A DNA stretch of 20,000 bases from assembly GCA_048213135.1 (NCBI GenBank), contig PS015550.1:51755-71754 (forward strand). Direction: 5' to 3'. Below the pieces are notes generated by a model, which saw only the letters and a list, made by a program, of their open reading frames with translations, ran no database searches and was not told the DNA's origin. Position numbers and translations under genes: made by a program. The stretch comes from Reclinomonas americana ATCC 50394. Taxonomy: Eukaryota. Of the stretch, positions 1 to 17,989 are shown piece by piece (position 1 is the first letter of the stretch; every line of letters begins with the position of its first letter).

Positions 1-788
1 CGGCGTAGACGGGTCCATGGCCACCATGCCCATCACCGCCGAGCGGAAATCAATCGGACGACCGCGAGAGAGCGCTTGGTAGAACTGCGCACAGGCGTGA
101 GCGACGTGAGCATCTACGCGCTGCGTCACAGCTGTGTCGCACGGACTGCACCTGGCGCTTGAACGAGCTCGCCGGCACGCCCATGGCGTCAATCAGACGA
201 CCGACACCGTCCTCGTCGAGCAGGTGCTTGCCGTCCTTGGGCAGGCCAGCGCAGTGGACGAACAGCTCGGCGGCCTGCACGGATAGAGACGATAAGTTAG
301 GGAGGAGGAGGGGAATGAGAGGGGAAGGAGAGGGGAAGGAGAGGGAGAGAGAGAGATAGAGAGCGAGGGAGGGAGGGGGAAGGAGAGAGGGGAGAGGGAG
401 GGGAGAGAGAGAATGACAAGAGAGACAGAGAAGAGTGGAGGTCGACAGAGGTGCATATGCAGCGGAAGATATGCGTGCCTCGACAGGCGAAAGATGGTGA
501 GCATGACGAAAGCACGACGATCTGCATGCTCAGATTGCATGCAATGCGAAAGAGGAAGAATCGCATGATGATCGCTCTCTCTTCCTTCTCCTCTCATTCT
601 CTCTCTCTCTCACTCACTCACTCACACACACACACACACACACACACACTCTCACTCTGCTCTCCCTCCTTCCTCACCTTATCCATCTTCTTGCTGTCAA
701 ACTTGACCGTCTCAAACAGCGACAGCTCATCCTCCGTGAACTGCGGCTGCTCCGTCGACAAGAGCTGCGAAAACGTCGGCGATGCCAT
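1..788 (-). CDS. 5' part of a spliced gene running off the window; EF-hand-like N-terminus, possibly of an EF-hand Ser/Thr phosphatase
   Basis: Exons 788-678, 274-152 and 84-1 join through GT-AG introns (CTAAC branch point at 296-300) to give MASPTFSQLL...KMDK|AAELFVHCAG...SSFKRQ|FYQALSRGRPIDFRSAVMGMVAMDPSTP. IDFRSAV resembles an EF-hand exit. A 5'UTR intron is likely at 945-791. Confidence 0.55.
590..660. repeat. Compound (CT)n/(CA)n microsatellite, representative of many intronic and intergenic SSRs
   Basis: Seen directly; similar tracts at 950-969, 6036-6052, 6175-6195, 9248-9276, 10080-10145 and 19820-19862. Confidence 0.95.
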
Positions 789-1022: not shown

Positions 1023-2843
1023 ATGGCAAACGAGCCTGCGGTGTATGGCCTCAAGTACCAGGTGCGCCCCTGTCTGTCTCTCTGTCTCTCACACACAGTG
1101 AAACAATGGCTCACAACTGGTTGCAGGCGCGCGCACTGTGCAATGTGCCCGCGGACTCGGATGCACACACGTTCTTTGTGGCGACGCAGGTACACACACT
1201 TGCACACACACAGAGGCACAAACAGCTGTGCTCACTCCTTCCCACTCTCTTATCTCTCACATCACACAGGCTCTGCTGTACGACAACGAGTTCTACGTGT
1301 TGGTGTACAACGAAGACGACAGGCGCATGTTTGTGCAGGTTGGTGGTGTGCATTCTCTGCGTTCATGACTTGTCATCGATCTGACTCTTGCCCGCAGAGC
1401 ATTTACACCCACAAACCCGAAGTCTGGGCACTGGCCTCGGCTCCCTGGCGCAAGTCCGTCTTCTGCTCGGCCTACAACCTCGGCTCCAGCGGCTTCCACG
1501 CCTCTCTCTGGCGTCTCCCTTGCGTTTCGTGGCTTTCCCGCGTGTGCTTCTGTTCGTCGCTGTGGCGCGCTCACCGTCGCCACAGATGGAGGACGATGCG
1601 TCGGCCGGTAGCACCATGAAGGAACTGACGCGTCTTGGTGGCGATCCGGGTGAGACGGCATCGATTCACGAGGGCTCCATCAAGTCGCTGCTGTTTGGCC
1701 CGGTGGGTTATCGGGACTCGCTGGTGACGGTGGACGACACCACAGTGCATCTGTGGACGGTGGAGGACGCTGGCGCGCATGCCATTGAGAAGCAGCATTT
1801 CCAGCTTGGCATGCAGCGGTTAGTGATGGCCGCGTGGGATACGCAGCACACGGATCGCATTGTGGTCGGCAGCGAGAAGGCTGTGGATCTGCTGGACATT
1901 CGCACCGGCAAGTTGCGTTTGTTTGCGCGTGTGTATGCTGCCTCATCTGCCTCATGTTTGTGCACGAGCTGACGCACACAACACGCTCAGGTCGATGTTG
2001 AGCTTCCAACCGCACACGTTGCCACTGAGGTGTCTCGACTGCAACCCGAATGTGCCCGAGCAGATTTGCACGGCGGGCGAGGATCAGGTTTTGTTGTGCC
2101 CGGGGTGTGTGTGAGCGGCCTTGCGTGTGGAAAATTGACTCGTTGGTGCCGTCGCAGCGCATCAGCATATGGGATGTGAGGAATACGGATAAGCCGATTG
2201 TTTCCAAGATCAGTCACAGCCACTGGTGCGCGTTGTGGCTGAGGAGGGGGCGTTCTTGCCTCGCCACTGACAACGATTTGTGTTGCGCAGGATCACAAGT
2301 GTCACCTACAACCCCTTTTACGGTGTGTGCGCTGTCGGTCATTGCGCTGCGATCGCGTTGAACTTATTGTCGTACTCGTGGCCTGCAGATCAATTGTTGC
2401 TCACCGCGTCCACCGACACGCTGGTGCAACTGTGGGGAGTTGAGTGGCGGCGTCATGCATCACCCTGTCTACATCATGATTGACTGTATATACGACCTGC
2501 AGATCGAAACAATCAGCTCTGCCGCTCGCCCTGAATCGTTACATGCACAACGCGAGTGCATGTCAGCAGAGCACCATATCTCACGCGTTCTGTTTCTCAT
2601 GCAGAACACCACAACCACCGACGCTGGTGGCACGAGTGGACAAGCACGAGGATAGTGTCACTGCTGCGTGCTGGTCAGCCGCGGGCCCGTGGGTGTTTGC
2701 AAGCTTGTCGTATGATGGTGCGCATGTGGACTTTGTTTTCCCATCTCCCGTCGATCTCGATACTCATCTCTCTCGCCGCAGGTCGCGTGCTGCTTCACAA
2801 CGTCCCACAAGGCGAAAAGTACAAGATCCTGCTGGTTGAGTGA
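1023..2843 (+). CDS. EIPR1: EARP/GARP-interacting WD40 protein (TSSC1/EIPR1), 12 exons
   Basis: Spliced product begins MANEPAVYGLKYQARAL...FFVATQALLYDN and ends [42 protein letters not shown], matching the remembered EIPR1 motifs YGLEFQARAL and [13 protein letters not shown]...KYHILL. Introns: 1062-1126, 1190-1269, 1339-1397, 1524-1585, 1912-1990, 2088-2157, 2226-2290, 2323-2388, 2439-2502, (2538 or 2556)-2604, 2718-2781. Confidence 0.93.
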
Positions 2844-2955
2844 TCAGCATTTGACCCTTGACTCCACTCACAGTGAATCCACGCTGCTACTTTCGTGTAC
2901 TTGCTGTTGATTTCTTTTTCACTCGGAGCGGTTGGCGTTCGAGAGGGACGAATAC

Positions 2956-5900
2956 TTAAATCTCACGACCCTCGTCGTCCAAGTTGCGCGTTGCGAATCT
3001 AAAGAGGGAGCCCGCATTGGTGGTTGTCGAGCTGGGTGGACTCTGCGTCGTCCGCGGACTCTGCGTCGTGCGCGGACTCTGCGTCGCGGGTGGACTCTGC
3101 GTCGGCGGTGCCGCGGCAGTGGCAGGGGCCGAGCCGAAGCGTTCCACTGGCGGTGTTGGTGAAGGTGTTGGTGACGGCGATGACGCCTCACTGGCGGCGA
3201 GAATGCTGGACGCCTTGCGCAGATCCACCGATTGCACCGCGCGTCGCGACGACGGCGCGGCAGTGAGGTCGCCGAACGGATTGGAGCTGCGGGCACTGCT
3301 GTGGCTGCTCGGTGGCGTCACCTGCATGCTGGCGTGGTGCGCGCGCATACCGAGTCGCTGAGACGACGTTTCTGACGGCACCAAGAGTGGCGGAGGGGCG
3401 CGCGTGGTTGGGGGTGACCGTGGCATGCTGCCCGTGGCAGAGAGGCGTGAGCTGTGTCGCGTGTGCACCAGTGGTGGCGGGGTCGCCGGTGGCATCTGGC
3501 CGGGACTGTCGGATCGTGCCTACCAGACAGAACGTGAGTGTGGAGGGAGATCAGCTCGAGCAGCAGAGAGCACCCACGCACCCATCCACCACCAAGCAGT
3601 GCGCCCTCTTCGTCGTCTTGCGAGTTGGTCGACATGCGTCGGTCGCCGAGACCAGTCGTCGTCGAAGACGGTGGCGGGCACACGACTGGGTCGGTGGAGG
3701 CCGAGATGCTGGAGGCGCCGTGGGCAGCCATCTGCGAGCACGTGTCAGTCACCGTACGTGCGTGTGTTCGTGATCGATGACAACGAGTGAACGAACAGCT
3801 TCCGCCACGTAGGATGCTGGCAGCTGCACTTGCACGACGAGGTTCGTCGGGGTCTTTGCCGCCGTGCCAACGTCCGCAGTGCCGGCACCCGCGACCACGC
3901 CAGTGGCCCCCGGTGCGGCGCTGGAGAGGTCGTCGAGGGTGATGGACTGCATCAGCATCGCAGAGTGAGGGGACGTAACCGTCAAAGATGCCATGTGCAG
4001 AACGCAACCGATGGGAGACCACCGTGGTGGTCGTCGATGCTGCTGATGCGCGTGGCCTTGCCCTCGCTGTCCACCACTGACCAGGTGAGCTTGGCGCGGC
4101 GCTTCTGACGCTTCTGGACCTGTGGCGATGAACGGAAGAGAGGATGAGCTCGTAAAAGAGAGTGACAGAAAGGTGCAAGTGCACACACCAGGCGGATGAG
4201 GAACTGTACAGCGACTAGACCGCCGATACACAAGAGCAGTAGTGGAGCGACAACGGTCTGTGAAGGAAACAAAAGTCAGAAAAAAACTGGCGACAGCGGA
4301 GGATCGAATACGAGAGTCGCACAAGTGGGATCCTGAGTCTGCGATGAGAGGAGACCGGAGTGAGAGCAGCGGAGCGAGATCAGCAACAAGACTTGACGCA
4401 AAGAAACGAAACAGTCTGTGCACAGAACGAGGGCACGTGAGTAGCCGGGGATGAGAGCCAAGAGAGAGAGAGACAAAGAGTAGGATTCACCCGTATGGAA
4501 TCGGTGCAATGAACCACACCATCCATTCGGCACGGCGCTGCAGCTTGTCGACCAGCTCCGATTGTTGTTTCTGCGAAGAGGCGGAGAGAAGTGAGTCATG
4601 TCGCCCTGAAAAGAAATCAAAAGAACGTGGCGAACCATCATCAGTGTGGAAACCAAAATGTACCACACCAGCCTGCGCCAGAACAATCAGTACCACTTTC
4701 CAAGCTTGATTCTCTCCACTGCCAACACACGCAACGTGGTCAACGTGATAAAGTACGAGATGAGCATGAAGCGATCGGCAAATGTCTGCGCAAACGCAGC
4801 TCGCAGGTGAGCAAAGTGCATGCGACATGAACTCATGCGAGGCGCTCACCATGGTGCCCGATGGCACGCCCAAGTTGTCTGCCGGTAGAGGGGATGGGGT
4901 GAGAGAGTGTAGATAAAAACTCGTTGACGAACATTCACGAAACAATGATACATGACGAGGGCCTGCGAAGAGGCGGAGAAGTGAGCATGAAGTGCATGTG
5001 ACACGCGATGGCGTTAACGACAGCACGCAACGACAAAGGAGTTGGTGACGAGACCAAACGACGTGGACAGGTAGTCCTTGTACGAAAGCGAGAACGACGA
5101 CAACACAATCAACTGTCGTGCGCACATGCAGTGAGCAGCATAGCAGCGACACTGGGAAGGATGAAGGGAGAAACGCACAACAATGAATATCGGCGGCAGC
5201 AGAGTCTGTGGAAGCGAGAGTTAGTTGTGGAGGAGAGGATTTGTACACGCACGCCATCCACTTGCCTTGGAGAAGCACTTGAAGTCTGCGACAGCGAGTG
5301 AGTGAGTGAGTGGCTATCTTCGAAAAGAGCAACATGAGAATGGCGACGACTCACATGGTCTGTTGATGGGCATAATGTACTCGAGCATGGGCGTGGTGGC
5401 CAGACCGCGCTTGTACATGGTCATGCCTTTGAACTGGACCAGCGGGTCGTCAAACTCCCAACCAGGAATGACTGAAAAGATCCGTGAGCACTCTGACGAA
5501 AGCGATCTCTCTCTCTCTCATCGCCTCACGCAACTGATATCATCAGCGTATCCACTGGCCTCGGGTATGAACTCCATATGCGTGACGCCATTCACCCAAA
5601 AGCGAATGTTGAGTCGCTCCACCTGCGTCACACGCAAGCAAAATCAGGCACTGGCATCAGTCACAGTCACCGCAGTGCCGCAGCGCCGCAACATCAAACG
5701 GAAAGTCTTGCGCTTCCAGCGGCCAGTTCAGCGTCGTGCGACAGATGGTGTAGCAGTCGGAGGGAAAGTACGTGCCTTTATGGACGATCATGAGCCGCTG
5801 CAAAGACAACTGCAAGTGCTGCTGCAGTGGAGACGCAACATCGCACCCACAAGCCCGCATTGTCGACCCACGGGTCCTGTGATCCATCCGCGGCCGGCAT

Positions 5901-6171
5901 CCAGCAGGCGTTCTCCGGTTGCGGAGTGCGAAAGGTGAAGACGAGAGTGGCGTCAAAGGCGCCCGTGTCGACCACCACATTCGCAATCTTCAAGAGAACG
6001 AGAGAGTGAGACAACAAGAGAGAGCAGCAAGTGTCGTGTGTGTGTGTGTGTGCTCGTAACTTTGGAGACAAAGAGGCCCACGCGGAGAGACGAGGGAGGT
6101 GATGCGGCGTGAGTGGCGCAGGCAGTGAGCAGCAGAAGGAGGAGGAGGAGAAGGGGACGAGAAGCGTGCAT
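2956..6171 (-). CDS. Cys-less (Pro-loop) pentameric ligand-gated ion channel subunit 1, about 20 exons, with an extra TM helix and a long S/T/P-rich tail
   Basis: Signal peptide MHASRPLLLLLLLLLTAC; beta1-2 VGLFVSKIANVVVDTGAFDATLVFTF; Pro-loop QDFPFD; IPGWEF; pre-M1/M1 INRPYFKCFSKTLLPPIFIV; M2-M3 YHYNLGVPSGTMTFADRF. All 19 introns (about 60-75 nt) keep the frame to the TAA at 2956. Confidence 0.82.
3036..3106 (-). repeat. Coding 18-bp tandem repeat (4 copies) encoding TQSPxx
   Basis: The core ggactctgcgtcg recurs every 18 nt and translates on the minus strand as TQSPPA TQSPRT TQSPRT TQSPPS. Confidence 0.9.
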
Positions 6172-6927
6172 GTTGTGTGTGTGTGTGTGTGTGTGCAAAG
6201 AGTGTGTGGAGTGCAGCCACCCGCTCACTCCAAGGTGGAGGAGAAGATCGATGGCCAACTGACTGACTGAGTGTTTTTTCGCAACAAGGGCGCAGCGAAT
6301 GCTTTTCGGAGTTGCATCTGAGGCATGACAGCAGCTGCATTCGTGCTTGCATCGGCCACGACACGTACAGCAGAATCGCAGCACGTCGCGCCTGCTGAAT
6401 CTTTCTGCTGCTCAACCCCGACACCACCTCTGTCACGCGCGTGTGTGTACGTGTGCACGCTTTCCTCACCTCAAGAACACCTCCTGACATGCATTCCAGC
6501 TTTGCTCGACTGGCGGTAGGCCTGTCATTGTTCTTGCTTCCCTCAGTCAGTCATTCACTCAGTTGTCGACAGATCCCGTGTCGATCGCTGGTGACGGCCG
6601 CCGTTGGTCGCATTCTACGCGTTGTCGGTCACACCCCGACTGCGCCGAGCATTCTTCCGCAGTCAACGTTCGCCACGCGGTTGCGTTTCCTGCTTGCTGG
6701 CTGCGGCACTCTTTTTGTTATTTTCCTTTCCTTTCCGTCCCTCCTCCTGACCTGTCGCGAAGAGAATTCTCGGTTTCGAGGAATCGATTCGCGTGGTGGT
6801 GCTCACACGCGGAAGCAGGTCGTCGTATTCCTTCCCGTTGTTTATTGCCGCTTCTACGAGAGCATTTGCCACCACCTCGAAGGCTCAACAGTCTGTCACC
6901 AGCAGCAGCACCACCGCCACCAACAAG

Positions 6928-7500
6928 ATGTCGATGCAGGCCTCGCAGCAACCCGACGTGGTCGACTTTATCATCACCGACCACCAGGTGATGAAGGACA
7001 AGCTGTCGGAGCTGAAGAATGCGGCCAGGGAGCAGCGCCAGTTGCTGCTGGAGCAAGCGGGCGCCATGCTGCGCGCGCATCAGCGAGCCGAGGAGCAGCA
7101 CGTGTACCCGGGCCTGGCCAATCAGGGCTCGGAGGAGAAGGGCCTGATCCAGCACGCTTTCGACGAGCACCGCGAGGCCGAGGCACTGCTGATGCAGCTC
7201 GAGGCATGTTCGATCGACTCGGCCGAGTTCGACAAGGTGCTGGGCGAGCTCGAAAAGGGCGTGCTGCACCACATGAACGAGGAGGAGACGAAGGTGCTGC
7301 CGACGATGCGACGCGAGCTGGAGCGCCAGCGGCTGCTGGACATGGGTGTCAAGTTTGAGCGCCAACGCTTGGCCGAGGTGGCCGCGGAGGCGCCGTCGGC
7401 CTCCAAGTTGTCGGCCGCCTCCACCGCCACCGCAGCGCTCGGCGGAACAGCAACAACGACCACATCATCGACCACGACCTCCTCTCGCGGAACCGCCTAG
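6928..7500 (+). CDS. Hemerythrin-like (HHE cation-binding) protein, intronless
   Basis: The metal-ligand pattern DH...HQRAEEQHVYP...EH...HHMNEEETKVLP (H, HxxxE, H, HxxxE) is typical of HHE hemerythrin-like four-helix bundles. Confidence 0.9.
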   Translation: MSMQASQQPDVVDFIITDHQVMKDKLSELKNAAREQRQLLLEQAGAMLRAHQRAEEQHVYPGLANQGSEEKGLIQHAFDEHREAEALLMQLEACSIDSAEFDKVLGELEKGVLHHMNEEETKVLPTMRRELERQRLLDMGVKFERQRLAEVAAEAPSASKLSAASTATAALGGTATTTTSSTTTSSRGTA

Positions 7501-7925
7501 TGAGAGAGCACAGCTGTAGGAAAAATAGAAAGACCTTGTTAGAGGGCAGGGCAGTCGGAATGTATCCGCCGGAAGTTGTCCCACTCGTTCTTCTTCGTGC
7601 TCGAGTGGAGACGGGGATGCGTCCGTCCAGCGTGAAGGCCGTGAATGCGACACTTGCCGTTGTGCGAGCCAAGCAGGGTGAGCTGCTCTCATCCTTTGTC
7701 TGTGGCCGACTCACGCACTGAGGAAGAGACCGCGACACACAGCTGTGAGTCGGAAGACGCGATGGATGTACATTGTGTTTCACACGATCGTGTTTCTCGC
7801 CGCCAGTGCCGTGCTCATCTGCACGGTCTACGATGACGCAGAGAATGCAGAGATGCGGTGCGTCTCTCTCTCATGATCACACTCACATCAAATCACTCTT
7901 CATTCTTACACTCATCAGGGGACTC

Positions 7926-8834
7926 ATGGAGCGCGCACGACAGTCGTTCAAGCAGGCCACATCGCTGCTGATGCAGCCGCATGTGGCCTTGTTTGTCATT
8001 GCAGCAGTTGCGGGCGGAGCGACAAGAGTTGTCTTTCATCATCATTGTCGCAGAGTCACTGACTCGATCCGCACCCTGCAGTACGCACTGTGGATTGTCT
8101 CTGCCGCCACCAAGCAGTTTGTGCTGTCACAGGTGGGCGCTACTCGCGTTGTTCTATGTCATGGCGGGCACTTCTCACTGTGTTTATCCTTGTAGCCGTG
8201 GAAGAGCGTCCTCGGCAAGTCACCCAAGGTCTGCTCCTCCGACATCTTCCACTGTCACTTGTTCGCTCACTCCCTCCTTGCCGGAAACCAACAGTCGGAA
8301 GTGGAGCGCGTGGCGCACGGCATCTCGCTCTTCGTGTACGCCATCGGCCTCATCTTTGTGCTCAGCAACTTCGGTCTCGACACCACCGTGTTGACCTCCT
8401 CGATGGGCATCACCGCCGTGGCCGCGGGCTTTGCGTTGCGCGAGTTTGCCATGAATGTGATTTGCGGACTCTTCCTGTTGGCGTACGACCAGTACCTGCC
8501 GTTGCGTCCACCACGCTGTTTATTGTGCGTTCTCCATGTGCTCACGGTGTGCACGTGTGTGGGGCAGAGGCGATCGCATCAAAGTCAAGGATTTCGAGGG
8601 CATCGTGTCGAAAGTGGTGCGTGACAGCAGTCCATCGCCCCCTTCACAACGCTGACTCCCGTCGTGCAGCATCTGCGCTACACAGTGGTGCAAGGCGTCG
8701 ACGCCAAGGACGGCCAGCTCTTCTACATCCCCAATCGCGACATGACCGAGTCCATCGTGACCCTCATCAGCCGCGCTCCCGACGCCGAGCCAGCGCCCTC
8801 TCCCTCCAGTGACGAAGGCAGCCCATCACAGTAA
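7926..8834 (+). CDS. Short MscS-family mechanosensitive channel (start uncertain, upstream exons likely)
   Basis: TM2-TM3 FVLSNFGLDTTVLTSSMGITAVAAGFALREFAMNVICGLFLL, then spliced YLP|GDRIKVKDFEGIVSKV|HLRYTVV...FYIPN, which is the MscS beta-domain signature (GDxI...G.V..I.LRxT...IPN). TAA at 8832-8834. Confidence 0.88.
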
Positions 8835-8846
8835 ACAAAAAAAGAC

Positions 8847-9398
8847 TCACAGCTTGGTACGCGTCAACAGCGGTGGATCCAGTGCCATCAGCAACGCCGA
8901 CGAGAACACCGCCGACGCCGCTCCCACATCGCCCCACCGCAGAATCGCCTCACACACCGCCTCCGCCTCCTCCACCACCGTCAAGTCACACACAAAACGT
9001 CGCACAATGCTGCAGTCCTCGCCCTCTGACGGCAACGCCAGCAGGTCGCTGCTCTCATCGCCCGCTCGTCGATGCGTAAACACCACTGCCTGCACGCGCG
9101 ACGACGAGCGGCACTCGCGCAGCATTGCCTCCACATCTACGCTCTTGGCGGCAGACACGGGCACCAGAAGCACCAGTGCATCGCAGGCAACCAGATCATC
9201 CGCGACACTCTCACGCGTGTGACTGGCAGCAACGCGCAGTGAGTCACACAGAGAGAGAGAGAGTGTGTGTGTGTGCAAGTGACAACGCAACAGCACCAGT
9301 GGCAATGGGGGTCGGAACCTGCTCACTGCCACACTCGCACATCGCTCACAGAACGTGCGCTTGCCGCTGCCGGGTGCACCACACACGACAACGCGCAT
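8847..9398 (-). CDS. Degenerate small GTPase-like P-loop protein
   Basis: MRVVVCGAPGSGKRT (G1-like), ACDALVLLV and AVVFTH strands. G3 and G4 are not canonical. Probable intron 9318-9223 containing CA/CT repeats. Confidence 0.6.
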   Translation of the reverse strand: MRVVVCGAPGSGKRTFCERCASVAVSRFRPPLPLVLLRCHLHTHTLSLSLCDSLRVAASHTRESVADDLVACDALVLLVPVSAAKSVDVEAMLRECRSSSRVQAVVFTHRRAGDESSDLLALPSEGEDCSIVRRFVCDLTVVEEAEAVCEAILRWGDVGAASAVFSSALLMALDPPLLTRTKL

Positions 9399-9408
9399 TG
9401 TGAGAGCA

Positions 9409-9446
9409 GGGTTACCTTTGGCGGGGAAAGTGCCGCGCGGTAACCC
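9409..9446. promoter_or_regulatory. Inverted GGGTTACC/GGTAACCC pair in a 103-bp divergent intergenic region
   Basis: gggttacc at 9409-9416 and ggtaaccc at 9439-9446 lie between head-to-head ATGs at 9398 and 9502. Regulatory function is inferred only. Confidence 0.35.
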
Positions 9447-9501
9447 CCATTCACTTTCTTTTGCGCCACTTGTTTTGTGTGCTATCCTCGCTTCCGTTAT
9501 C

Positions 9502-10988
9502 ATGTCGTTCGGCATCAAGGGTTGCGTTGCGGGTAGAGGAGAAGAGGGGGAGGAGCGATAGAGGAGTGCAATGCAGTTTGTTTGTTTGGTGTGAAATGGC
9601 GCTCTCTCTCTCTCACAACTTTGTGCCTGTGTCTGTGTGTGCATTAGTTCTGGGCACTCGCGGTGCGGTGCAGGCCGAGTCTGCGCAGTTCACAGTCGGC
9701 TCTGCGCGTCAGAAGGCCTTCTGGGGTCAAGTGGTGACGCTGTTGCGTGAGGAGTGCCATGCTCATGACGCACACACCTCTGTCTCCCTCTCTCTCTCTT
9801 TCTCGCACCCAACTGACACACACACGCACGCACACACGTTGCATGTCTTTGCTGCTGTCTCTCTCTCACACACTGTATGTGCAGGCCAATGGGTGACGGT
9901 GCACTGCTGGTGCAGTTGTTTGACGATGACGATCAGGAGGCTGGTGAGTGTGTGTGTGTCTCTCTCTCTCTCTTGTGTACATCAGTGTCAGAGCAAGTGA
10001 GGGATAAGAAAGGAGAGAGAGAAGAGAGAGTTATGTTGCATGGTGATCGTATTTGAAGTGCATTGCATCGCGTGTTGTATGTGTGTGTCGTGTCTTTGTG
10101 TGCGTGCGCGTGTGTGTGTATGTGTGTGCGTGTGCGTGTGTCTGTGCATCGCATACTCAGCCTTCTTCCTCTTCTTCTTTCTCGTTCTTTTGTCGCAGCT
10201 CGCGTGACCATTGACCTGCACACTGTGGCTCCCAACTCGAGCGACTGGTTCGACCTGAGCAACGGCTCTGGCGCTGTGCAGCTGAACTTTGAGGCCGTCG
10301 GCGGTTGCGTCCTCTGTCTCTTCGTGATGATGATGATGATCGCGCACCTCTCATGACTCGTCTGGCTAATGTAACAGGTGCCGTGGCCATGGACGACGAT
10401 CCGTTTGGCGCACCGGCGGCCTCGGGCTCTGGCTTCCAGCAGGTCGACTCCGAGGAGGAGGAGGAAGAGGAGGAGAGCGAGGAGGAGGAGGAGGAGCACC
10501 ACAGCTCGGAGCCAACGCCGCTCATGTTGTGGCAGGAGAAGCACAATGCGGAGCTCATTGAGCGCGCCACCGCCGCGCGTGCCAAGCGCGACGAGCGCAA
10601 GACCGGCGCCCGCGACTGGTTGAAGAAGTTCTACGAGGATCGCGACGGCAAGCTGTCTGCCAAGCAGAAGCTCAACCGGTGCGCTTTACATTTTTGGTAA
10701 CCATTCATCCCTCCCTTGCCGCCCTTCTCAACCCCGCCCCGCATGTGCAGCCAACAAAACCAGGCTCTGGTGGAGAAGATCAATGCCAACCTCGGCGTTG
10801 GTCAGATCTGGGAGCGTGTCAGCAACCTCATCAACATGGGCGCCAACTCGGCCGGTCGCAAGGACGTGGCTCGCATGCGCTCTGTGCTGCTGCAGGTGAA
10901 GAACTCGACTCCGGCTCACTTGGCGCGTCACGACGCCGTCGCCGCTGGCGGCCGTGGCGGTGCTTCGGGCTCGGCCGATCTGTTCTAA
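9502..10988 (+). CDS. Clathrin light chain with an N-terminal C2-like domain, 6 exons
   Basis: The C-terminal part has an acidic region, then PLMLWQEKHNAELIERA...ARDWLKKFYEDR and IWERVSNLI...KDVARMRSVLLQVK (clathrin light chain signature). Exons 9502-9520, 9648-9741, 9885-9943, 10199-10303, 10378-10678 and 10751-10988 are all in phase. Confidence 0.88.
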
Positions 10989-11176
10989 GCTCTTTCTCTC
11001 TCCCTCTCTGTGTGTTTTTTTGTGGCAAATATGGTCTTTTTTAAGCGCTGTCTCGTCGTGTGCGTGTCTTCCTCCTCCTCCTCTTGTTCTTCTTTCATTT
11101 TTACGTGAGTACACTTGTGCACAACAGACTGTGGTTACCTCCTCCTTTCTCCTCCCTCTACTGTGTCAATTTGTCT

Positions 11177-12840
11177 TTACTTTATCTTTGAGTATCGCGC
11201 CAGGTCGTCGAGACTTCCGTAGCGCCGCTTGACCAGATTGCGATGCGCGGACTCCAAGAAGCGCGCCTTGCGGTCAAAGTCGAGCGATGTGCGGCTGCGT
11301 GGCAGGCCGTCGTGCATGCCTGGCGAACTGCGGCCACTACTGTTGCCGCCGGTCTCGGTCTGTGAGCCGGCGCGCGCACTTGTCTCCGACGGCGGATCAG
11401 CTGGCTCTGGCGTCTCGGCGCGCTCCTGCTCCGGTGTCGGTCGGGGCACGAAGAAGAGCTGCAGACGACCGCGGGCACTCTGTCCACGCGGCAGACTCCA
11501 CAGCAGGTGGCCGAAAACCAGCGACACCAGAATGACGCACACTGAGACGACGGCGGCGCGCCACGGCAGCGAGAGGATCGCCACCAGAATCGGCACGCAC
11601 ACCCACACGGCACCGGAGGAGATGCGCTGGAGGCGACGAGCCAGCGGTGCGCGATTGACCTTGGTCAGTGAGCCCACGTAGCGGTACCACGCAAAGCTGG
11701 TGTGACAAAAGAAGTGAGCAGCCGCACCGAGTAGGGGAGAGAAAAAGGGAAGCAGTGCACGCACCACAGCGCAATGAGCAGGTACACGCCGAGCACGAAG
11801 CGATCAATGTAGGAGATGTTGCTCGACGGCACGTCGAGGTTCCAGTGGAACAAGATGAGACCCCTGCCGCAAGAGAACCAGGCGGTCAGCATGCTGCAAG
11901 AAGCCGGCCGACAATCGTCATGTGCGCGCGTGTGTGTGTACGCAACAACAGCGAGGCACTGCACACCGAACTGCCGACGCGCACGTAGCTCTCCGGCGGC
12001 AACGTGAACGGCGCCGTGACGATAATGACCAGTGCGATCGGTGGCAGGAAGAACTTGATCATGGCCTTGAACAGCGGTCGGGTCACCGGCACGGCAAAGG
12101 TGATGGCCGAGATGGTGTCGGCGCCCCGATACAGGCCACTCGGCCCGCTGATCGACACCGCGTCTCGATCAATGTCAAAGGTCGGCAGATACACCTGTGG
12201 CAAGCCAAGAAGATGAGTTCAGACGCCACGGAATGGGTGGAAACGCACGGCCAGCTACTGTACCTCGTCGGCGACGCCAGAGGCCTCCGGGAACGGAAGC
12301 AGGCGAACATTGGGCATCGGCAGCGAGAAGGTCACGGCAATGCTCTCGTCGTTGAAGGGGAAGGAGCCCGAGGACAGCACCGGCCAGAACTGCATGACTG
12401 TGCAATCAGTACCTCCCTCTCTCTTTCTGTGAGTGTGTACTCTCCACTCGCTTGCGCACCACTGTCGTCTTGCACTCAATGAAGCACAACGTGGGCTGCT
12501 CGAATCGCTGGCAGATGGCTCTCGGATGTGCATTGTCGATCCACGGAAGCACATCGGGAGGAGGCAACCAGCATTCATCTCCTCCACCATCTGCTGCCTC
12601 GCGACGAAACGAAAACACAATGGTCACATCCGCTCGCGCAGTCTCCAACTTGACATCAGCAATCTGCGCGCTTTTCGCTGCTCAGCTGCGATTCACTCAT
12701 TCACGAGACAGAGACTGACTGACCCTGCTGATCCACACGCCGGCCTTCACGTCGATCACATCGCTACTCTGCGCCTCTGCCACAATCACCGCGACCGTGC
12801 AGAGAAGAAGCACGAGGCACGCTATTCTCCGCAGTGTCAT
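11177..12840 (-). CDS. Cys-less pentameric ligand-gated ion channel subunit 2 (paralog of 2956-6171), 6 exons
   Basis: Signal peptide; AGVWISR|IADVKLETARADVTIVFSF; SFPFND; VTRPLFKAMIKFFLPPIAL; FHWNLDVPSSNISYIDRF; two further hydrophobic helices. It aligns colinearly with subunit 1. Confidence 0.82.
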
Positions 12841-12927
12841 TCGGGAGTTGTCAACTNNNNNNNNNNNNNNNNNNNNNNNNNNNNNNNNNNNNNNNNNNNN
12901 NNNNNNNNNNNNNNNNNNNNNNNNNNN

Positions 12928-14546
12928 CGGTCCTGCCGCACACCACACGACGTCGTCGATCTTGAGCAGCGTGGCGACGGTTTCCACGGCAAACGACAGC
13001 ATGCTGGTCTTGACGGCGGCGGGCTCCAGCACGCCGAGCTCGCGCATGTTGGCCACGGAGCCGCGGATGAGATCGAGGCCGCAGTGAGCGGCGCCCGCCA
13101 CGTCGGTGGCAATGGTGTGACTGAGAGCGGTGATCAGCTCGAACTCGTTGTGACCGGCGTTGGCCGCCAGTGCCTGTGGGAGGGCGAGAAGGGAGCGCGC
13201 CAGTGCGCGGGCGACGGACCGCTCGACGGCGCNNNNNNNNNNNNNNNNNNNNTTGCAGGAGGGCGGACGTGCTCGAGCCAGTGTGCGAGGTGCGCCTCCA
13301 CGGAGCCACCGCCGGCCACCAGCTGCCGCGCTCCCAGAACAGTTTGCACGGCCCGCTGCGCATCGTGCAGGGCACGTTCGGCCTCGGCGAGTATGGTCTC
13401 GGAGGCGCCCTGCAGCACAACACTGCACATGCTGGTCGGCGTCGATATTTCATGCAAACGCAATTGCGACACGGTGCCGCCGTCCAGCAACTCCAGCGAC
13501 TCGGCCTCCACCACCATGGAGGAAGCAGAGGTAGACGCACCGTCGTCACCCACAGCACACAAATCGTCCGGCGACAGCAACGGCACACCCGTGTACTCGG
13601 CCACTCGTCGCAACACATCGCTCGGCACCTGCGCCACCACTAGCACACCTGCCTCCTCGAACGCATGCAACACCCTGTCTTCCACCTTGCCACCACACAG
13701 CAGCACATTGCATCGAGTGCGTGCCACCCACGCCTCGACCATCACTGCAACACGCGCCGGCAGCGCAAAGGCCACCAGCGTGGCGCGCACCGATGTCACC
13801 AGTCGCGACATCAATCGCGAAGGAATGGCCCCCATGTTGCGCCACACAGCACCCGGTTTCACCAAGTACGAGTCTGTCAACTGCCTGCCCGCTCTTCGCT
13901 GTACCACCGACAACGGTGCCGCGCCTGCAGTCACCACCGAGTCCACCGCCAGCTGCGCAATGTGCGATCGTGCACTGGCCACAGCGCACTTGGAGGCCAG
14001 CACAGTGTTGGCCATGGCACTCATCAGCAACGCAGCACTAGCTCCCTCTTCAGCATCCACAGAGAACGCCAGATGTTGCTGCACATGATCCACGGCCTCA
14101 TCACGCAGGCGAAACAGTGCTCCGAGAATGTCGGTGTTCGCCACGCCCTCAGTGTGCACCAGCCGCAGCACAGACGACACGATCTCCACGGCCAGCACCA
14201 CTGCACTGGTCGTTCCGTCACCCACACGCGACTGCGCGAGCGGTGTGAGTGACAACAGAGAAGAGAAATAAGAGGTGAGAGCGCGCAACATCCTGCGAGG
14301 TGGCCAAGTCTGCGAGGATGCGACACACGGGGTTCTTGAGTCGAAAGTGTCGCAGAATGGTGGCACCATCGTTGCTCAGCACCACGTGCCCGCTCTCATC
14401 GACCAGACACTTGTCGCGACCCTGCATGCAACACTCACGTGAGTTGTCTCTGTGGAGAGCAAAGAAGGAGCGGCAGAGGCCGAAACTAGTGGGCCGAGGG
14501 ACGTGCGCAGAATGTCACGCAAAAGATAACAGGCGTCAAAGCTCAT
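12928..14546 (-). CDS. Divergent group II chaperonin, CCT1/TCP-1 alpha-like paralog (stop codon probably in the N gap)
   Basis: Motifs TSLGPL|GRDKCLVD...SNDGATIL, QD|SRVGDGTTSAVV, ERALHDA, VAGGGSVEA and GVLEPAAVKTSMLSFAVETVATLLKIDD. Introns at 14486-14422 and 14289-14232. Confidence 0.88.
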
Positions 14547-14643
14547 GAGGCAACGAAGACAAGAGGATGAGACGGACGAGGACAGCTTGGTTGGTTTCGC
14601 TCATTTACGAATAATTTTTCCTTCTTCTGCCACACTTGTCTCC

Positions 14644-16976
14644 TCATTCGGGCTGCGTTGGTGTCGGTGCGGTGGCGGGTACAGGTGTGGGAGTAGTGGG
14701 CGTGGTGGGCGTCGGAGCTGTCGACGTGGGGGCAGTGGTGGTGGTGGTGGTGGTGGGAGCTGGTGCGGCAGCAGCGGCGGCAGTGGGGGGCTTGATGGCC
14801 TCGTGAACGGCGACCTTTTGCCAGGAACCGTCGCGCATGTTCATCTGGAAGAGCACTTTCTCGCGGTAGGCTTGGTTGGTGCTCTCGACCACCTTTTCCG
14901 ACATGGACAGCGTCACGGTCATCATGCCGTCGCTGTTCGGATCCACAGCACCTAGAGAGGGAGGAATGTGTCAAACGACGACGCACGACGCAGGCAACGC
15001 GGCTCACTGCACGCAACTGCGCTGGCCGGAGAGGAAGGCGTAAATGTAGTTGCGAATCTCGGTGGTGACCATGTTGCAGTCGGCGGTGAGTTTGTTGATG
15101 GTTGCCAGGATTTGCTGTTGCTGCAGGGCCAACTGCAGTTGCTGCTGCTGGTGTGGCGTCAGCTGTTGCATCTGCTGCGCCGCCTGCATCTGCTGGTGTT
15201 GTGCGGTGTGCTGATCGGCATTCTGTGCAGCCGCCGGCAGAGTTGCCGAGGGCACGCCAAATGGCGGTCGATACTGCTGCTGCAAAAACGGATTCTGCCC
15301 GCCGGCAGCCGCAGCAGCAGCCGCGGCGGCGGCGGCGGCTGCAGTGGGCGCCTGAGCGGGTGTGGTCAGCTGGAACGGAGTCGGCGTCGGTCGCTGCATG
15401 AGCGAGCCGAACGGTGATGGTGTGGCTGAAGCGCCGGGTACGGCACCAAGCACAGCTGCGGCCGCGGCTGCGGCCGTCGCAGTGGCTGCCAGTGACGGAG
15501 CAAATGGAGACGCGCCGAGACCCTGAATGGCACACGGTCAGCGTGATGTGAGGGGGTGAGTGTGAGATGGGCGCAAAAGCACTCACAGCTGCGGCGGCCG
15601 TCTCTGTGCGCGCGCGCGTGTGAGCAACGAGAGACTGTGCGAAGCAGCAGCAATATCGTGGCACGCAACTCTTCTTCTCCTCGCGTCGCTTTTCCTTGTC
15701 CTCTCGTTCCTTTTCTTTCCTCCTTTGCTTGGCCTCACGAGTGCGATCGGCCTGCTCCTCCTTTTCTCGCTTCCGTCGTTCCTTCAAGTCCTCGCGGGCG
15801 CGTTTCACTGCGAGCATGTGAGCAACGAGCAAAGGAGGGAGAGAAAGAGAGCAGCTCACCGTCTTCCTTTTCCTTCTTCGCCATTTCTTCACGACGACGG
15901 TGAAGCGAGTCGGCCTCCTCGGCCGCCAGCAGCACCACACTGCCCTCTTGACCGGCCGTGAGCGGTGGTGAAGCCGCCCGTGCTACGCTGGCCTTGAGCA
16001 TGCGATCAAACACCTCCTCGTCGCGTCGCGTCAGGAATGCCGAACCACCGCCGAGCGAGCTGCCGCTGGTCGTTGTCCGCGAGGCCGCCGTACGCTGTGC
16101 GGCGGCACGCAGAGCATCAAACCCGGACAGCCGTGGCGCGCCTGCCGTCGTCGTGAGACGCAGCGAGAATGTGGAGAATGTGGCAACGGACATTACCTGG
16201 TCGCACTCCGCCACCACCACCAGCACTACTGCCAGCGCCACCCAGCTGCGAGGATCCACTGGCCGACGATGGTGCATCCGTGTCCATGGCACTGCTGCCG
16301 TCCTCGCCTCCAAAGGATTTTGCGTGCACCAGACTGCGGGGTTTTAACCGGAATGGCACTGAAGGGGAAGAGGTGAGGTGTGCGTGTGGGAGAGAGACGA
16401 GAGTGCGTCAAAAGACGCAACGATGCGGCTCACGAATGGCCACCAGCTCGGCTCCATATTGCTCCTGCAACACGTCCTGGTCGATGTAGGCCCACACACG
16501 CGGAGGCACTGCAATGTAGCCGAAATTGTCTTGCCACACGGGCGCCAGCCGGTCGAGGGCGTCGTCGACCTCACGCAGTGAGGAGTTTGCCGACATGGTC
16601 ATGAGGTCGTCAGCCGAGCCGTCGTCGGAGGATGCCGATGGCGTGGCTGGCGGTGGTCCGTGCACGTCGATGCGCGGCACTCCAGACGACGGCACGTCGC
16701 GCAGGATGCGCCCCATGACCTGTGTCCACTTGTCGTCGTCGTACTCGGCCACCTGTTGTTCGGGGGGTGAGTAGCTTACTCACGCACACGCATGGGCTGC
16801 ACACCCACACACACGCAACTCGAATGATTTCCGTCATCTCCTCGCGCACGTCGTTGACAGCGGCCTTCTTGAGCGTGAGGAAGCCGAGCAGTACACGAAT
16901 ACGGACCGAGGCCTCCAGGCTCGAGAAGTTGGTCGCAATGCGGCGCAGGTCACTCTTCGAGATGATGGAGGATAGT
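14644..16976 (-). CDS. NELFA: Negative elongation factor A homolog (first exons upstream, across the gap)
   Basis: FSSLEASVRIRVLLGFL...EMTEIIR|VAEYDDDKWTQVMGRILRDVP matches the remembered NELF-A FHGLSSAVKLKLLLG...EIIQLASLDSDPWV. CNMVTTEIRNYIYAFLSGQR...VLFQMNMRDGSWQK matches NKVTRPEKALILGFMAGSR...VFEMNYATGQW. Seven resolved introns. Confidence 0.85.
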
Positions 16977-17180
16977 CTGGAAGGGGTGAGGGGGTGAGAA
17001 GGGGAGAGAGCGCAAACAAGACAAGTGCGACGAGAGTGCAGAAGAGAACAATAAACGGAGCGCAAGTCGAGGCGAGCGAGAGTATGAGAGGAGAACGGGG
17101 CGCGCAGGAAACGAGATAAGCAAGATAATGCGAGAAAAGACACTGAGCACAGCGAGGACAACAGGAGGAGAGAGACACAG

Positions 17181-17413
17181 GAGACAAGACAAGAACGCAT
17201 GCAATGCAAGCCGCAGCGAGAGGGAGACAAGTGGCAGGAGAGGATGAGACAAAACAAGCGGGAATGATCAAGACGCAGCGCACAGCAAGGATGAGAGAGG
17301 CGGAGGAGACAAGACAAGAATGCATGAAATGAGGAGCACAGAGAGGAAGACAAGTGGCGGGAGAGAATGAGACAAGACAAGCGAGAATGGTCAAGACGCA
17401 GAGCACAGCAAGG
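17181..17413. repeat. Degenerate direct repeat with period about 125 bp (2 copies) inside a long NELF-A intron
   Basis: gagacaagacaagaa...gacaagtggc.ggagag.atgagacaa.acaagcg.gaatg.tcaagacgcag.gcacagcaagg starts at 17181 and again at 17306. Confidence 0.85.
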
Positions 17414-17461
17414 TCAACAGGACGAGAGAGAGAGAGAGAGAGGAGGAGTAGGAGACGAGAA

Positions 17462-17989
17462 NNNNNNNNNNNNNNNNNNNNNNNNNNNNNNNNNNNNNNN
17501 NNNNNNNNNNNNNNNNNNNNNNNNNNNNNNNNNNNNNNNNNNNNNNNNNNNNNNNNNNNNNNNNNNNNNNNNNNNNNNNNNNNNNNNNNNNNNNNNNNNN
17601 NNNNNNNNNNNNNNNNNNNNNNNNNNNNNNNNNNNNNNNNNNNNNNNNNNNNNNNNNNNNNNNNNNNNNNNNNNNNNNNNNNNNNNNNNNNNNNNNNNNN
17701 NNNNNNNNNNNNNNNNNNNNNNNNNNNNNNNNNNNNNNNNNNNNNNNNNNNNNNNNNNNNNNNNNNNNNNNNNNNNNNNNNNNNNNNNNNNNNNNNNNNN
17801 NNNNNNNNNNNNNNNNNNNNNNNNNNNNNNNNNNNNNNNNNNNNNNNNNNNNNNNNNNNNNNNNNNNNNNNNNNNNNNNNNNNNNNNNNNNNNNNNNNNN
17901 NNNNNNNNNNNNNNNNNNNNNNNNNNNNNNNNNNNNNNNNNNNNNNNNNNNNNNNNNNNNNNNNNNNNNNNNNNNNNNNNNNNNNNNNN
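17462..17989. other. Assembly gap (smaller gaps at 12857-12927 and 13233-13252)
   Basis: Runs of N. Confidence 1.

Follow-up and report, generated by a model that had tools for sequence, protein, structure and literature searches.

Minor introns are served by a separate system, U11/U12. Among human donor sites (5' splice sites), those in the shifted register keep the cut at GT while all base pairs with U1, a small nuclear RNA (snRNA), are moved by one position (Roca & Krainer 2009, via PMC4856993), and the intron +1 G then pairs where the last exonic base, the -1 G, normally does. In PMC4856993, all the non-canonical registers together account for 2.1% of 201,541 human donors, and the bulge at +2/+3 for 68 of the 201,541, or 54 after curation (Roca et al. 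2012; Tan et al. 2016; PMC4856993). That U1 can bind human donors in shifted and in bulged registers is established (PMC4856993; PMC9311317), and human variant U1 genes appear in PMC3561869 and PMC10870369. Here we describe the donors of 57 introns in a 20,000-nucleotide stretch of the genome of Reclinomonas americana ATCC 50394 (assembly GCA_048213135.1, contig PS015550.1, positions 51,755 to 71,754 of the forward strand), called the window below and numbered from its first nucleotide, in which a class of donors beginning with GTT presents the usual intronic motif displaced by one base and lacks the preference for G at the exon position -1.

The 57 introns come from the eight genes that we modelled (G0, G1, G2, G4, G6, G7, G8 and G9), whose whole structure was inferred from the sequence of this single 20-kb window by reading frame and homology. 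In 27 of them the donor has T at +3 (GTT donors), in 29 it starts with GTA, GTC or GTG (conventional donors), and one intron is of the GC-AG type. The conventional donors are mostly of the GTGCGY and GTGAGY forms, with the consensus G|GTG(C/A)G(C/T), and 17 of the 27 GTT donors start with GTTGCG, the others being looser GTT forms. Like the human shifted-register sites, the GTT donors show a consensus displaced by one base and keep GT at the cut (27/27, all frame-keeping and 17 of them anchored as explained below). However, the human sites are rare and were described on ordinary U1, whereas the GTT class comprises 27 of the 57 introns and forms no stable pairing with the ordinary U1 5' end. The human donors with a +2/+3 bulge are also similar, having two U after the G and then the usual core, but their register predicts a retained preference for -1 G, which the GTT donors do not show. 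Variant U1 genes and U11/U12 establish the principle that a second donor class may have a small RNA of its own, distinct at the 5' end, although the GTT introns differ from those of the minor system in having the branch-like motif and the acceptor of conventional introns. It is the share of the GTT class, together with its misfit to ordinary U1, that is unusual with respect to the human registers, and a co-dominant class of this kind would be a new variant. Neither the motif nor such a donor class was described in the literature searched, in a search that was limited, and the genome paper of the organism may report it.

The displacement was evaluated with a matrix made from positions +3 to +8 of the conventional donors, which score 1.95 bits on it when left out one at a time. 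Positions +4 to +9 of the GTT donors, that is, with an offset of one base, reached +2.25 bits per donor, compared with -8.0 bits with no offset and -5.49 bits with an offset of two bases. The position table shows that the displaced motif matches the conventional one out to +8/+9. The alignment of N|GTTGCGT onto G|GTGCGT, which had been proposed in the initial annotation, is thus well supported. When both classes are aligned on the core, the intron +1 G of the GTT donors coincides with the exon -1 G of the conventional ones. The preference for -1 G is limited to the conventional donors; the exon side of the GTT donors is uninformative in either frame, and in conventional donors, too, there is little information at positions -2 and -3.

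The same annotation had counted about 20 of 25 GTTnnG donors with A, C or T as the last exonic base, and our models give 19 of 23 (A in 9, T in 6, C in 4 and G in 4). The six conventional donors that it named (1062, 2226, 2718, 10679, 9944 and, on the minus strand, 12723) are all present in the models with G at -1. Over the whole set, -1 G precedes 6/27 GTT donors versus 25/30 of the other donors (odds ratio 0.057, Fisher p=4.1e-6). The contrast was observed in the 32 junctions anchored by homology (3/17 versus 13/15, p=2.4e-4) and in the 25 unanchored ones (3/10 versus 12/15, p=0.034), as well as after removal of four ambiguous donors (6/24 versus 25/29, p=1.3e-5). By intron phase, the values for GTT and other donors were 4/14 and 14/17 in phase 0, 2/7 and 6/8 in phase 1, and 0/6 and 5/5 in phase 2. 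The direction was kept in five of the six genes that contain both classes (G1, G2, G4, G7 and G9), G6 presenting 2/3 versus 2/2. Within the window the contrast in -1 G is genuine and exceeds chance. Comparison with unused exonic sites shows what it consists of: before GTT donors, G is at its background frequency (6/27 versus 13/93 unused exonic GTT sites, p=0.37), whereas before conventional GT donors it is enriched (24/29 versus 128/456 exonic decoys, p=5e-9). Therefore the anti-correlation between -1 G and the shifted class claimed previously holds as an association, but not as a depletion; it is the usual enrichment that is missing.

At their 3' ends the two classes look like ordinary U2-type introns with similar signals. 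A branch-like CTSAY/CTAAY motif was found in 24/27 GTT and 25/29 conventional introns, at a median distance from the acceptor of 19 and 16 nt, respectively, and the median intron length taken from the sorted length lists is 66 nt for the former and 65 nt for the latter. The donor consensus of minor (U12-type) introns fits none of the 57 donors, and the branch-like motif is common to both classes.

A contrast of this type could also arise as an artefact, if the boundaries of the GTT introns were misplaced and the annotator had preferred G|GT for the ordinary donors. In favor of this explanation, the models were built on sequence alone, other in-frame GT or GC sites exist near most introns, and three of the first donor calls were wrong and had to be changed. 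Nevertheless, homology scans that ignore the donor motif still place a GTT donor at 17 of the 32 anchored junctions, among which the -1 G contrast already mentioned holds, and the three corrections moved the data towards the pattern, not away from it. Furthermore, GTTGCGT is about fourfold more frequent than in dinucleotide-preserving shuffles, since the window has 17 copies of it where 4.55 +/- 2.10 are expected, and 0 of 200 shuffles reached 17. All 17 occurrences lie on the strand of the nearest gene and 15 are modelled donors, the two others (6680 and 9291) being outside the eight models; within the modelled genes, GTTGCG is found 22 times on the sense strand, 17 of them as a donor. In view of these data we consider the artefact very improbable.

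The junctions were obtained as follows. Chaining exons ab initio with a codon model, but no model of the donor, fused genes and missed exons, and was replaced by hand models built so that each gene is one open frame, whose junctions were then tested by homology. Listing all the frame-compatible GT/GC-AG pairs was too permissive, and even with the acceptor held fixed alternatives were left for most introns. As these listings were undecided, homology scoring was used: all the in-frame GT/GC-AG alternatives within 48 nt of both intron ends were generated, and the resulting protein was scored against a relative irrespective of the donor motif. In this way 32 of the 57 junctions, 17 of the 27 with GTT donors among them, were anchored by an ortholog, a paralog or the coordinates of a Pfam profile; the remaining 25 were placed by frame continuity and typical signals.

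For G1, the representative search for relatives returned mostly generic WD40 proteins, and the sole usable ortholog was P0058, from a cluster without names, which is identical to G1 in 182 of 358 aligned positions. Against it, 10 of the 11 introns of G1 have a unique best junction. Two single exons, 1586-1911 of G1 and 8295-8498 of G4, used as word-index queries for longer proteins gave no matches. The paralogs G2 and G7 were scored against each other, and after correction introns 1-13 of G2 and 1-5 of G7 are all unique best, introns 14-18 of G2 being outside the informative part of the alignment. This scoring ruled out the donor calls at 5846 (G2 intron 2), 4928 (G2 intron 9) and 12440 (G7 intron 2), and selected 5839, 4943 and 12459, respectively. 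The GC-AG intron of G2 (5265..5206, minus strand) has G at -1 and a strong consensus beyond the GC; no in-frame GT fits, and the G2/G7 alignment is gapless solely with this junction. In G8, the second exon (44 residues) matches positions 13-56 of the Cpn60_TCP1 profile from end to end (E-value 8.9e-11), which fixes both flanking introns, and in G6 the Clathrin_lg_ch profile continues over the junction of the last two exons (82-154, then 164-218).

The window, which belongs to a compact and very intron-dense eukaryote, contains two co-dominant kinds of GT-AG introns. The best reading among the candidates, which requires a non-standard reader, is that the GTT donors are read in a shifted frame, one base out of step with the cut; we regard the chances of its being right as evenly balanced. 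According to it, both donor kinds would be recognized in a single frame relative to the G-C-G-T core by a reader RNA, most likely the 5' end of a U1-type snRNA, and the cut would be set later, at GT. It is established that U6, U5 and Prp8 set the cut at GT in the spliceosome. In the GTT donors, recognition and cleavage would be one base out of step, and the last base of the exon, being outside the strongly paired core, would for that reason drift to background composition. The lineage may possess an additional U1 5' end or a modified one, or else a helper factor, because the ordinary U1 5' end misfits the GTT donors.

To evaluate the pairing we used the 5' end of human U1 (PMC4856993, Table 2), which may differ from the U1 of the organism itself. 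In duplexes of free register, the conventional donors reached a mean of -6.5 kcal/mol versus -2.8 kcal/mol for 150 exonic decoy GT sites, with an area under the receiver operating characteristic curve (AUC) of 0.88, and the +1 G had its usual partner in 27 of the 31 conventional donors of an earlier version of the set. When 1,024 variants of the U1 5' end were scanned (positions 1, 2, 5, 6 and 8 varied), ordinary U1 was near-optimal for the conventional class (0.88 versus a best AUC of 0.895). An ordinary U1 probably exists, then, and handles the conventional donors. The best variants for the GTT donors, with G and A at positions 5 and 8, respectively, had an AUC of 0.93 and place the +1 G opposite the C that is usually the partner of exon -1, which is the shifted frame.

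Several observations weigh against a shifted frame, at least in its simplest form. With the human-type U1 the GTT donors do not separate from the decoys in any register (mean -2.4 versus -2.8 kcal/mol, AUC 0.43), and the shifted pairing is the best structure in only 2 of 25 GTT donors of an earlier version of the set; therefore a shifted register on ordinary U1 does not explain their recognition, which calls for something more, be it an altered U1 5' end or a second one, a helper, or a different reader. None of the 1,024 variants serves both classes (the best minimum AUC was 0.75), and the scan, having been fitted to the donors, does not count as independent evidence. A shifted frame would lead one to expect that -1 leans to A and -2 to C, but with 27 donors this is not significant (A at -1 in 9/27 GTT donors versus 20/93 decoys, p=0.21). 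In addition, all 57 junctions were read from the DNA and not from transcripts, and the reader RNA is a putative one. The sample is one window, with 25 junctions placed by frame continuity only, and the G2/G7 anchoring compares two in-house models with each other. The interpretation of the initial annotation, which had attributed to U1 pairing an uncoupling of recognition and cleavage by 1 nt, is partly supported: the one-base offset and the -1 G contrast speak for the uncoupling, whereas the pairing energies, with no gain over decoys in any register, speak against human-type U1 as its agent.

The same offset of the intronic motif would be obtained if the extra T at +3 (or +2) bulged from the duplex with U1, and afterwards from that with U6, the exon side remaining unshifted; the +1 G and one U would keep their partners and the G-C-G-T core would pair as in conventional donors. 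One extra nucleotide between GT and the core is indeed what is observed, and bulges at +2/+3 or +3 have been experimentally established in human donors (PMC4856993). The two explanations differ on the exon side, since a shifted frame predicts that it is silent and a looped-out T predicts that -1 G is retained: in a bulged register the -1 base still faces the usual C and G should stay favored, but it was found in 6/27 GTT donors, against 24/29 conventional donors and 13/93 decoys. Moreover, the offset motif is nearly confined to T at +3, with 27 such donors and one clear case with another base (3808, G at +3, unanchored). In the human lists, +3 bulges with other bases are about as frequent as those with U/U (51 versus 68 before curation and 36 versus 54 after it; PMC4856993). 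The confinement to T at +3 fits better with pairing to the A that normally faces the +2 U than with a looped-out base. Finally, the free-register energies, in which bulges are included, fail to separate GTT donors from decoys with human-type U1. A bulged register therefore seems to us an unlikely explanation.

Another possibility is plain compensation without any change of register, in which the tighter intronic consensus of the GTT donors relieves them of the need for exonic pairing. Such a case would correspond to the well-known trade-off between the strength of exon positions -1/-2 and that of intron positions +3 to +6, of which the classical example is the dependency between -1 G and +5 G. 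The GTT class is in fact more uniform, with C at +5 and G at +6 in 23/27 donors each, while at +4 the conventional donors have C in 13/29 and A in 11/29, and the fullest intronic consensus is found in the three conventional donors with T at -1. Dependencies between splice-site positions have been reported in mammals (PMC4671708). Yet compensation leaves unexplained both the exact displacement by one base and the T at +3, and with respect to ordinary U1 the GTT donors are weak, not strong. For this reason we consider compensation quite improbable, more so than a looped-out base.

The shifted frame may also be the work of two side-by-side systems, an ordinary U1 for the G|GTG and G|GTA donors and a second U1-type RNA complementary to GTTGCGT that would bind one base 'early', with introns switching between them and keeping or losing the terminal exon G accordingly. 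We consider this more specific version possible but rather doubtful. No snRNA gene was found within the window, a Rfam scan of which gave 0 matches.

The paralogs G2 (18 introns) and G7 (5 introns), identical in 105 of 325 residues, allow homologous introns to be compared. Two intron positions are exactly shared in alignment column and phase (G2 6060 with G7 12723, and G2 4735 with G7 11764), and at each of them G2 has a GTT donor preceded by A or C, while G7 has a conventional one preceded by G. It appears, as far as these predicted structures go, that an intron can change its donor class. Two further G2/G7 intron pairs are 1 and 4 nt apart. In the aligned part, GTT donors were observed at 4/4 shared or nearly shared positions and at 5/10 G2-only positions, so there is no enrichment of GTT at copy-specific positions in this pair. 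The idea that the shifted class eases intron gain, and would be enriched at lineage-specific positions, finds no support here, G2/G7 being the only place where we looked and one paralog pair being far too small a sample to settle it. In an all-against-all blastn of the 57 introns, no match was longer than 27 nt (19 nt with the low-complexity filter) and the 27-nt matches are simple repeats; therefore, within the window, there is no hint of a transposon-like (introner-type) intron family.

Two observations on individual introns of these paralogs should be added. The GTT introns 5031..4963 of G2 and 11946..11864 of G7 are displaced by one nucleotide in a gapless stretch of the alignment (phase 0 versus phase 2), which could be the result of intron sliding or an effect of the alignment. 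The GTT introns 5031..4963 and 4635..4571 of G2 share 17 identical nt up to the acceptor, with about 30 nt alike by eye, and this common end could derive from copying of the 3' end of an intron.

Recognition by U1 and the final choice of the cut are usually studied with rare human sites or engineered mutants. If the shifted frame is true, a genome with about half of its introns out of step would provide a natural test bed, on a large scale, for the relation between recognition and cleavage, in which the U1 genes could be read directly, thousands of matched introns compared, and class switches at orthologous introns followed along with the exonic G that is lost or gained. In practical terms, a gene finder that has learned to expect a purine at +3 and G at -1 would overlook nearly half of the donors or put them in the wrong place. 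Our own first hand calls at 5846, 4928 and 12440, which erred likewise, illustrate this risk.

The window is GC-rich (about 55-65% outside the gaps), with genes densely placed on both strands, of which we read about 11. Below, each intron is given with the coordinates of its donor first, followed by those of the intron and its length. G1, on the plus strand (1023-2843), is an EIPR1-like WD40 gene, as indicated by Pfam on open reading frame (ORF) pieces and single exons, the same basis as for G4, G6, G8 and G9 below. It has 11 introns in 1.08 kb of coding sequence. Conventional donors with -1 G are present in intron 1 (donor 1061..1068; intron 1062..1126, 65 nt), intron 2 (1189..1196; 1190..1269, 80 nt), intron 7 (2225..2232; 2226..2290, 65 nt), intron 8 (2322..2329; 2323..2388, 66 nt) and intron 11 (2717..2724; 2718..2781, 64 nt). 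GTT donors follow a G in intron 3 (1338..1345; 1339..1397, 59 nt) and intron 6 (2087..2094; 2088..2157, 70 nt), a C in intron 4 (1523..1530; 1524..1585, 62 nt) and intron 10 (2537..2544; 2538..2604, 67 nt, with a 2-residue alignment gap 7 residues downstream), and an A in intron 9 (2438..2445; 2439..2502, 64 nt) and intron 5 (1911..1918; 1912..1990, 79 nt). All are the unique best junction against P0058 except that of intron 5, which ranks third of 26, below two GC-start alternatives and tied with a GTT donor 9 nt downstream (1921, -1 T).

G2 and G7, both on the minus strand, encode paralogous membrane proteins, and per-exon Pfam scans matched no family to their exons; a Cys-loop-type channel identity was a first impression that no tool supports. 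Intron density is extreme and lengths are narrow: the coding sequence of G2 (2954-6171), of about 1.95 kb, is interrupted by 18 introns, and 51 of the 57 introns in the window measure 52-83 nt. Among the introns of G2 that are unique best against G7, GTT donors are preceded by A in intron 1 (6054..6061; 6060..5988, 73 nt), which shares position and phase with intron 1 of G7, and intron 4 (5528..5535; 5534..5472, 63 nt). They are preceded by T in intron 2 (5833..5840; 5839..5776, 64 nt), intron 3 (5686..5693; 5692..5623, 70 nt) and intron 9 (4937..4944; 4943..4879, 65 nt), by C in intron 8 (5025..5032; 5031..4963, 69 nt) and intron 11 (4729..4736; 4735..4673, 63 nt), the latter sharing position and phase with intron 5 of G7, and by G in intron 12 (4629..4636; 4635..4571, 65 nt). 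Conventional donors have T at -1 in intron 5 (5348..5355; 5354..5286, 69 nt) and intron 7 (5172..5179; 5178..5113, 66 nt), and G in intron 10 (4843..4850; 4849..4786, 64 nt) and intron 13 (4484..4491; 4490..4416, 75 nt), and the GC-AG donor of intron 6 (60 nt) is at 5259..5266.

The last five introns of G2 were placed by frame. Introns 15 (4182..4189; 4188..4120, 69 nt; rank 21/50 with the uninformative paralog) and 18 (3575..3582; 3581..3520, 62 nt) have conventional donors with -1 G, and intron 16 (4002..4009; 4008..3947, 62 nt; rank 2/6) a GTT donor, also with -1 G. The donors of introns 14 and 17 are uncertain: the former (4381..4388; 4387..4258, 130 nt) is GTT with -1 T and ranks 3/7 against G7, and the latter (3802..3809; 3808..3732, 77 nt) has G at +3 with an offset-like motif, -1 C, and ties with 15 alternatives. 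In G7, where all junctions are unique best against G2, conventional donors with -1 G were found in intron 1 (12717..12724; 12723..12664, 60 nt), intron 2 (12453..12460; 12459..12390, 70 nt), intron 3 (12257..12264; 12263..12195, 69 nt) and intron 5 (11758..11765; 11764..11697, 68 nt), and a GTT donor with -1 T in intron 4 (11940..11947; 11946..11864, 83 nt).

G4, a MscS-like channel gene on the plus strand, was placed by frame throughout. Its conventional donors, all with -1 G, belong to intron 1 (7677..7684; 7678..7742, 65 nt), intron 2 (7857..7864; 7858..7918, 61 nt), intron 4 (8132..8139; 8133..8195, 63 nt), intron 5 (8228..8235; 8229..8294, 66 nt) and intron 7 (8616..8623; 8617..8669, 53 nt), and its GTT donors to intron 3 (8006..8013; 8007..8081, 75 nt; -1 A) and intron 6 (8500..8507; 8501..8567, 67 nt; -1 C), the exon before the latter matching MS_channel_1st. 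In G6 (plus strand), the clathrin light chain gene, the first four introns were placed by frame. GTT donors with -1 G open intron 1 (9520..9527; 9521..9647, 127 nt), in a region where the N-terminal exons are not conserved, and intron 4 (10303..10310; 10304..10377, 74 nt), and one with -1 T opens intron 2 (9741..9748; 9742..9884, 143 nt), which is ambiguous with an in-frame GT at 9754 (-1 A). Introns 3 (9943..9950; 9944..10198, 255 nt) and 5 (10678..10685; 10679..10750, 72 nt), the latter at the junction over which the clathrin profile continues, have conventional donors with -1 G.

The remaining models are on the minus strand. G8, a Cpn60/TCP-1-type chaperonin gene, contains GTT donors in intron 1 (14480..14487; 14486..14422, 65 nt; -1 A), after which the next exon starts exactly at profile position 13, and in intron 2 (14283..14290; 14289..14232, 58 nt; -1 T), before which the exon ends exactly at position 56. 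In G9, a NELF-A-like gene whose introns were placed by frame, GTT donors with -1 A are those of intron 1 (16813..16820; 16819..16753, 67 nt), preceded by an exon that matches NELF-A_N 23-72, intron 5 (15663..15670; 15669..15604, 66 nt) and intron 7 (15011..15018; 15017..14952, 66 nt). Its conventional donors have G at -1 in intron 3 (16190..16197; 16196..16142, 55 nt) and intron 4 (15853..15860; 15859..15808, 52 nt), T in intron 6 (15580..15587; 15586..15523, 64 nt) and C in intron 2 (16427..16434; 16433..16359, 75 nt), which is ambiguous with an in-frame GTT donor at 16421 (-1 C). The two introns of G0, with conventional donors and -1 G, were also placed by frame, intron 1 (671..678; 677..275, 403 nt) having an open frame and no homology anchor and intron 2 being at 145..152 (151..85, 67 nt).

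At 16433/16421 (minus), 9742/9754 (plus) and 5846/5839 (minus), a GTTGCGT is found 7-12 nt from a GT of conventional appearance. The first two pairs are mutually in frame and indistinguishable from sequence, and may represent alternative donors; in the third, paralog scoring selects the GTTGCGT. Two features were left out of all counts. One is a small, P-loop-like gene on the minus strand (about 9400-8850) with two or three possible donors between which we could not decide, a sense-strand GTTGCGT at 9291 among its sequences. The other is a possible intron of the 5' untranslated region starting at 6680 (plus), where a GTTGCGT is found on the sense strand upstream of the hemerythrin ORF. The hemerythrin-domain gene itself (6928-7500, plus) and a WD40 gene of 415 residues (19787-18543, minus), both identified by Pfam, are intronless, while their neighbours carry about 10 introns per kb.

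The assembly contains gaps (N runs) at 12857-12927, 13233-13252 and 17462-17989, one of which falls within the chaperonin-like gene. Long GA- or CA-rich simple repeats occupy 300-420, 590-650 and 17000-17460, in intergenic and intronic positions. Finally, acceptors other than the usual CAG, two AAG and four TAG, were found at 5776, 5988, 14952 and 3520 (minus) and at 8195 and 9647 (plus).

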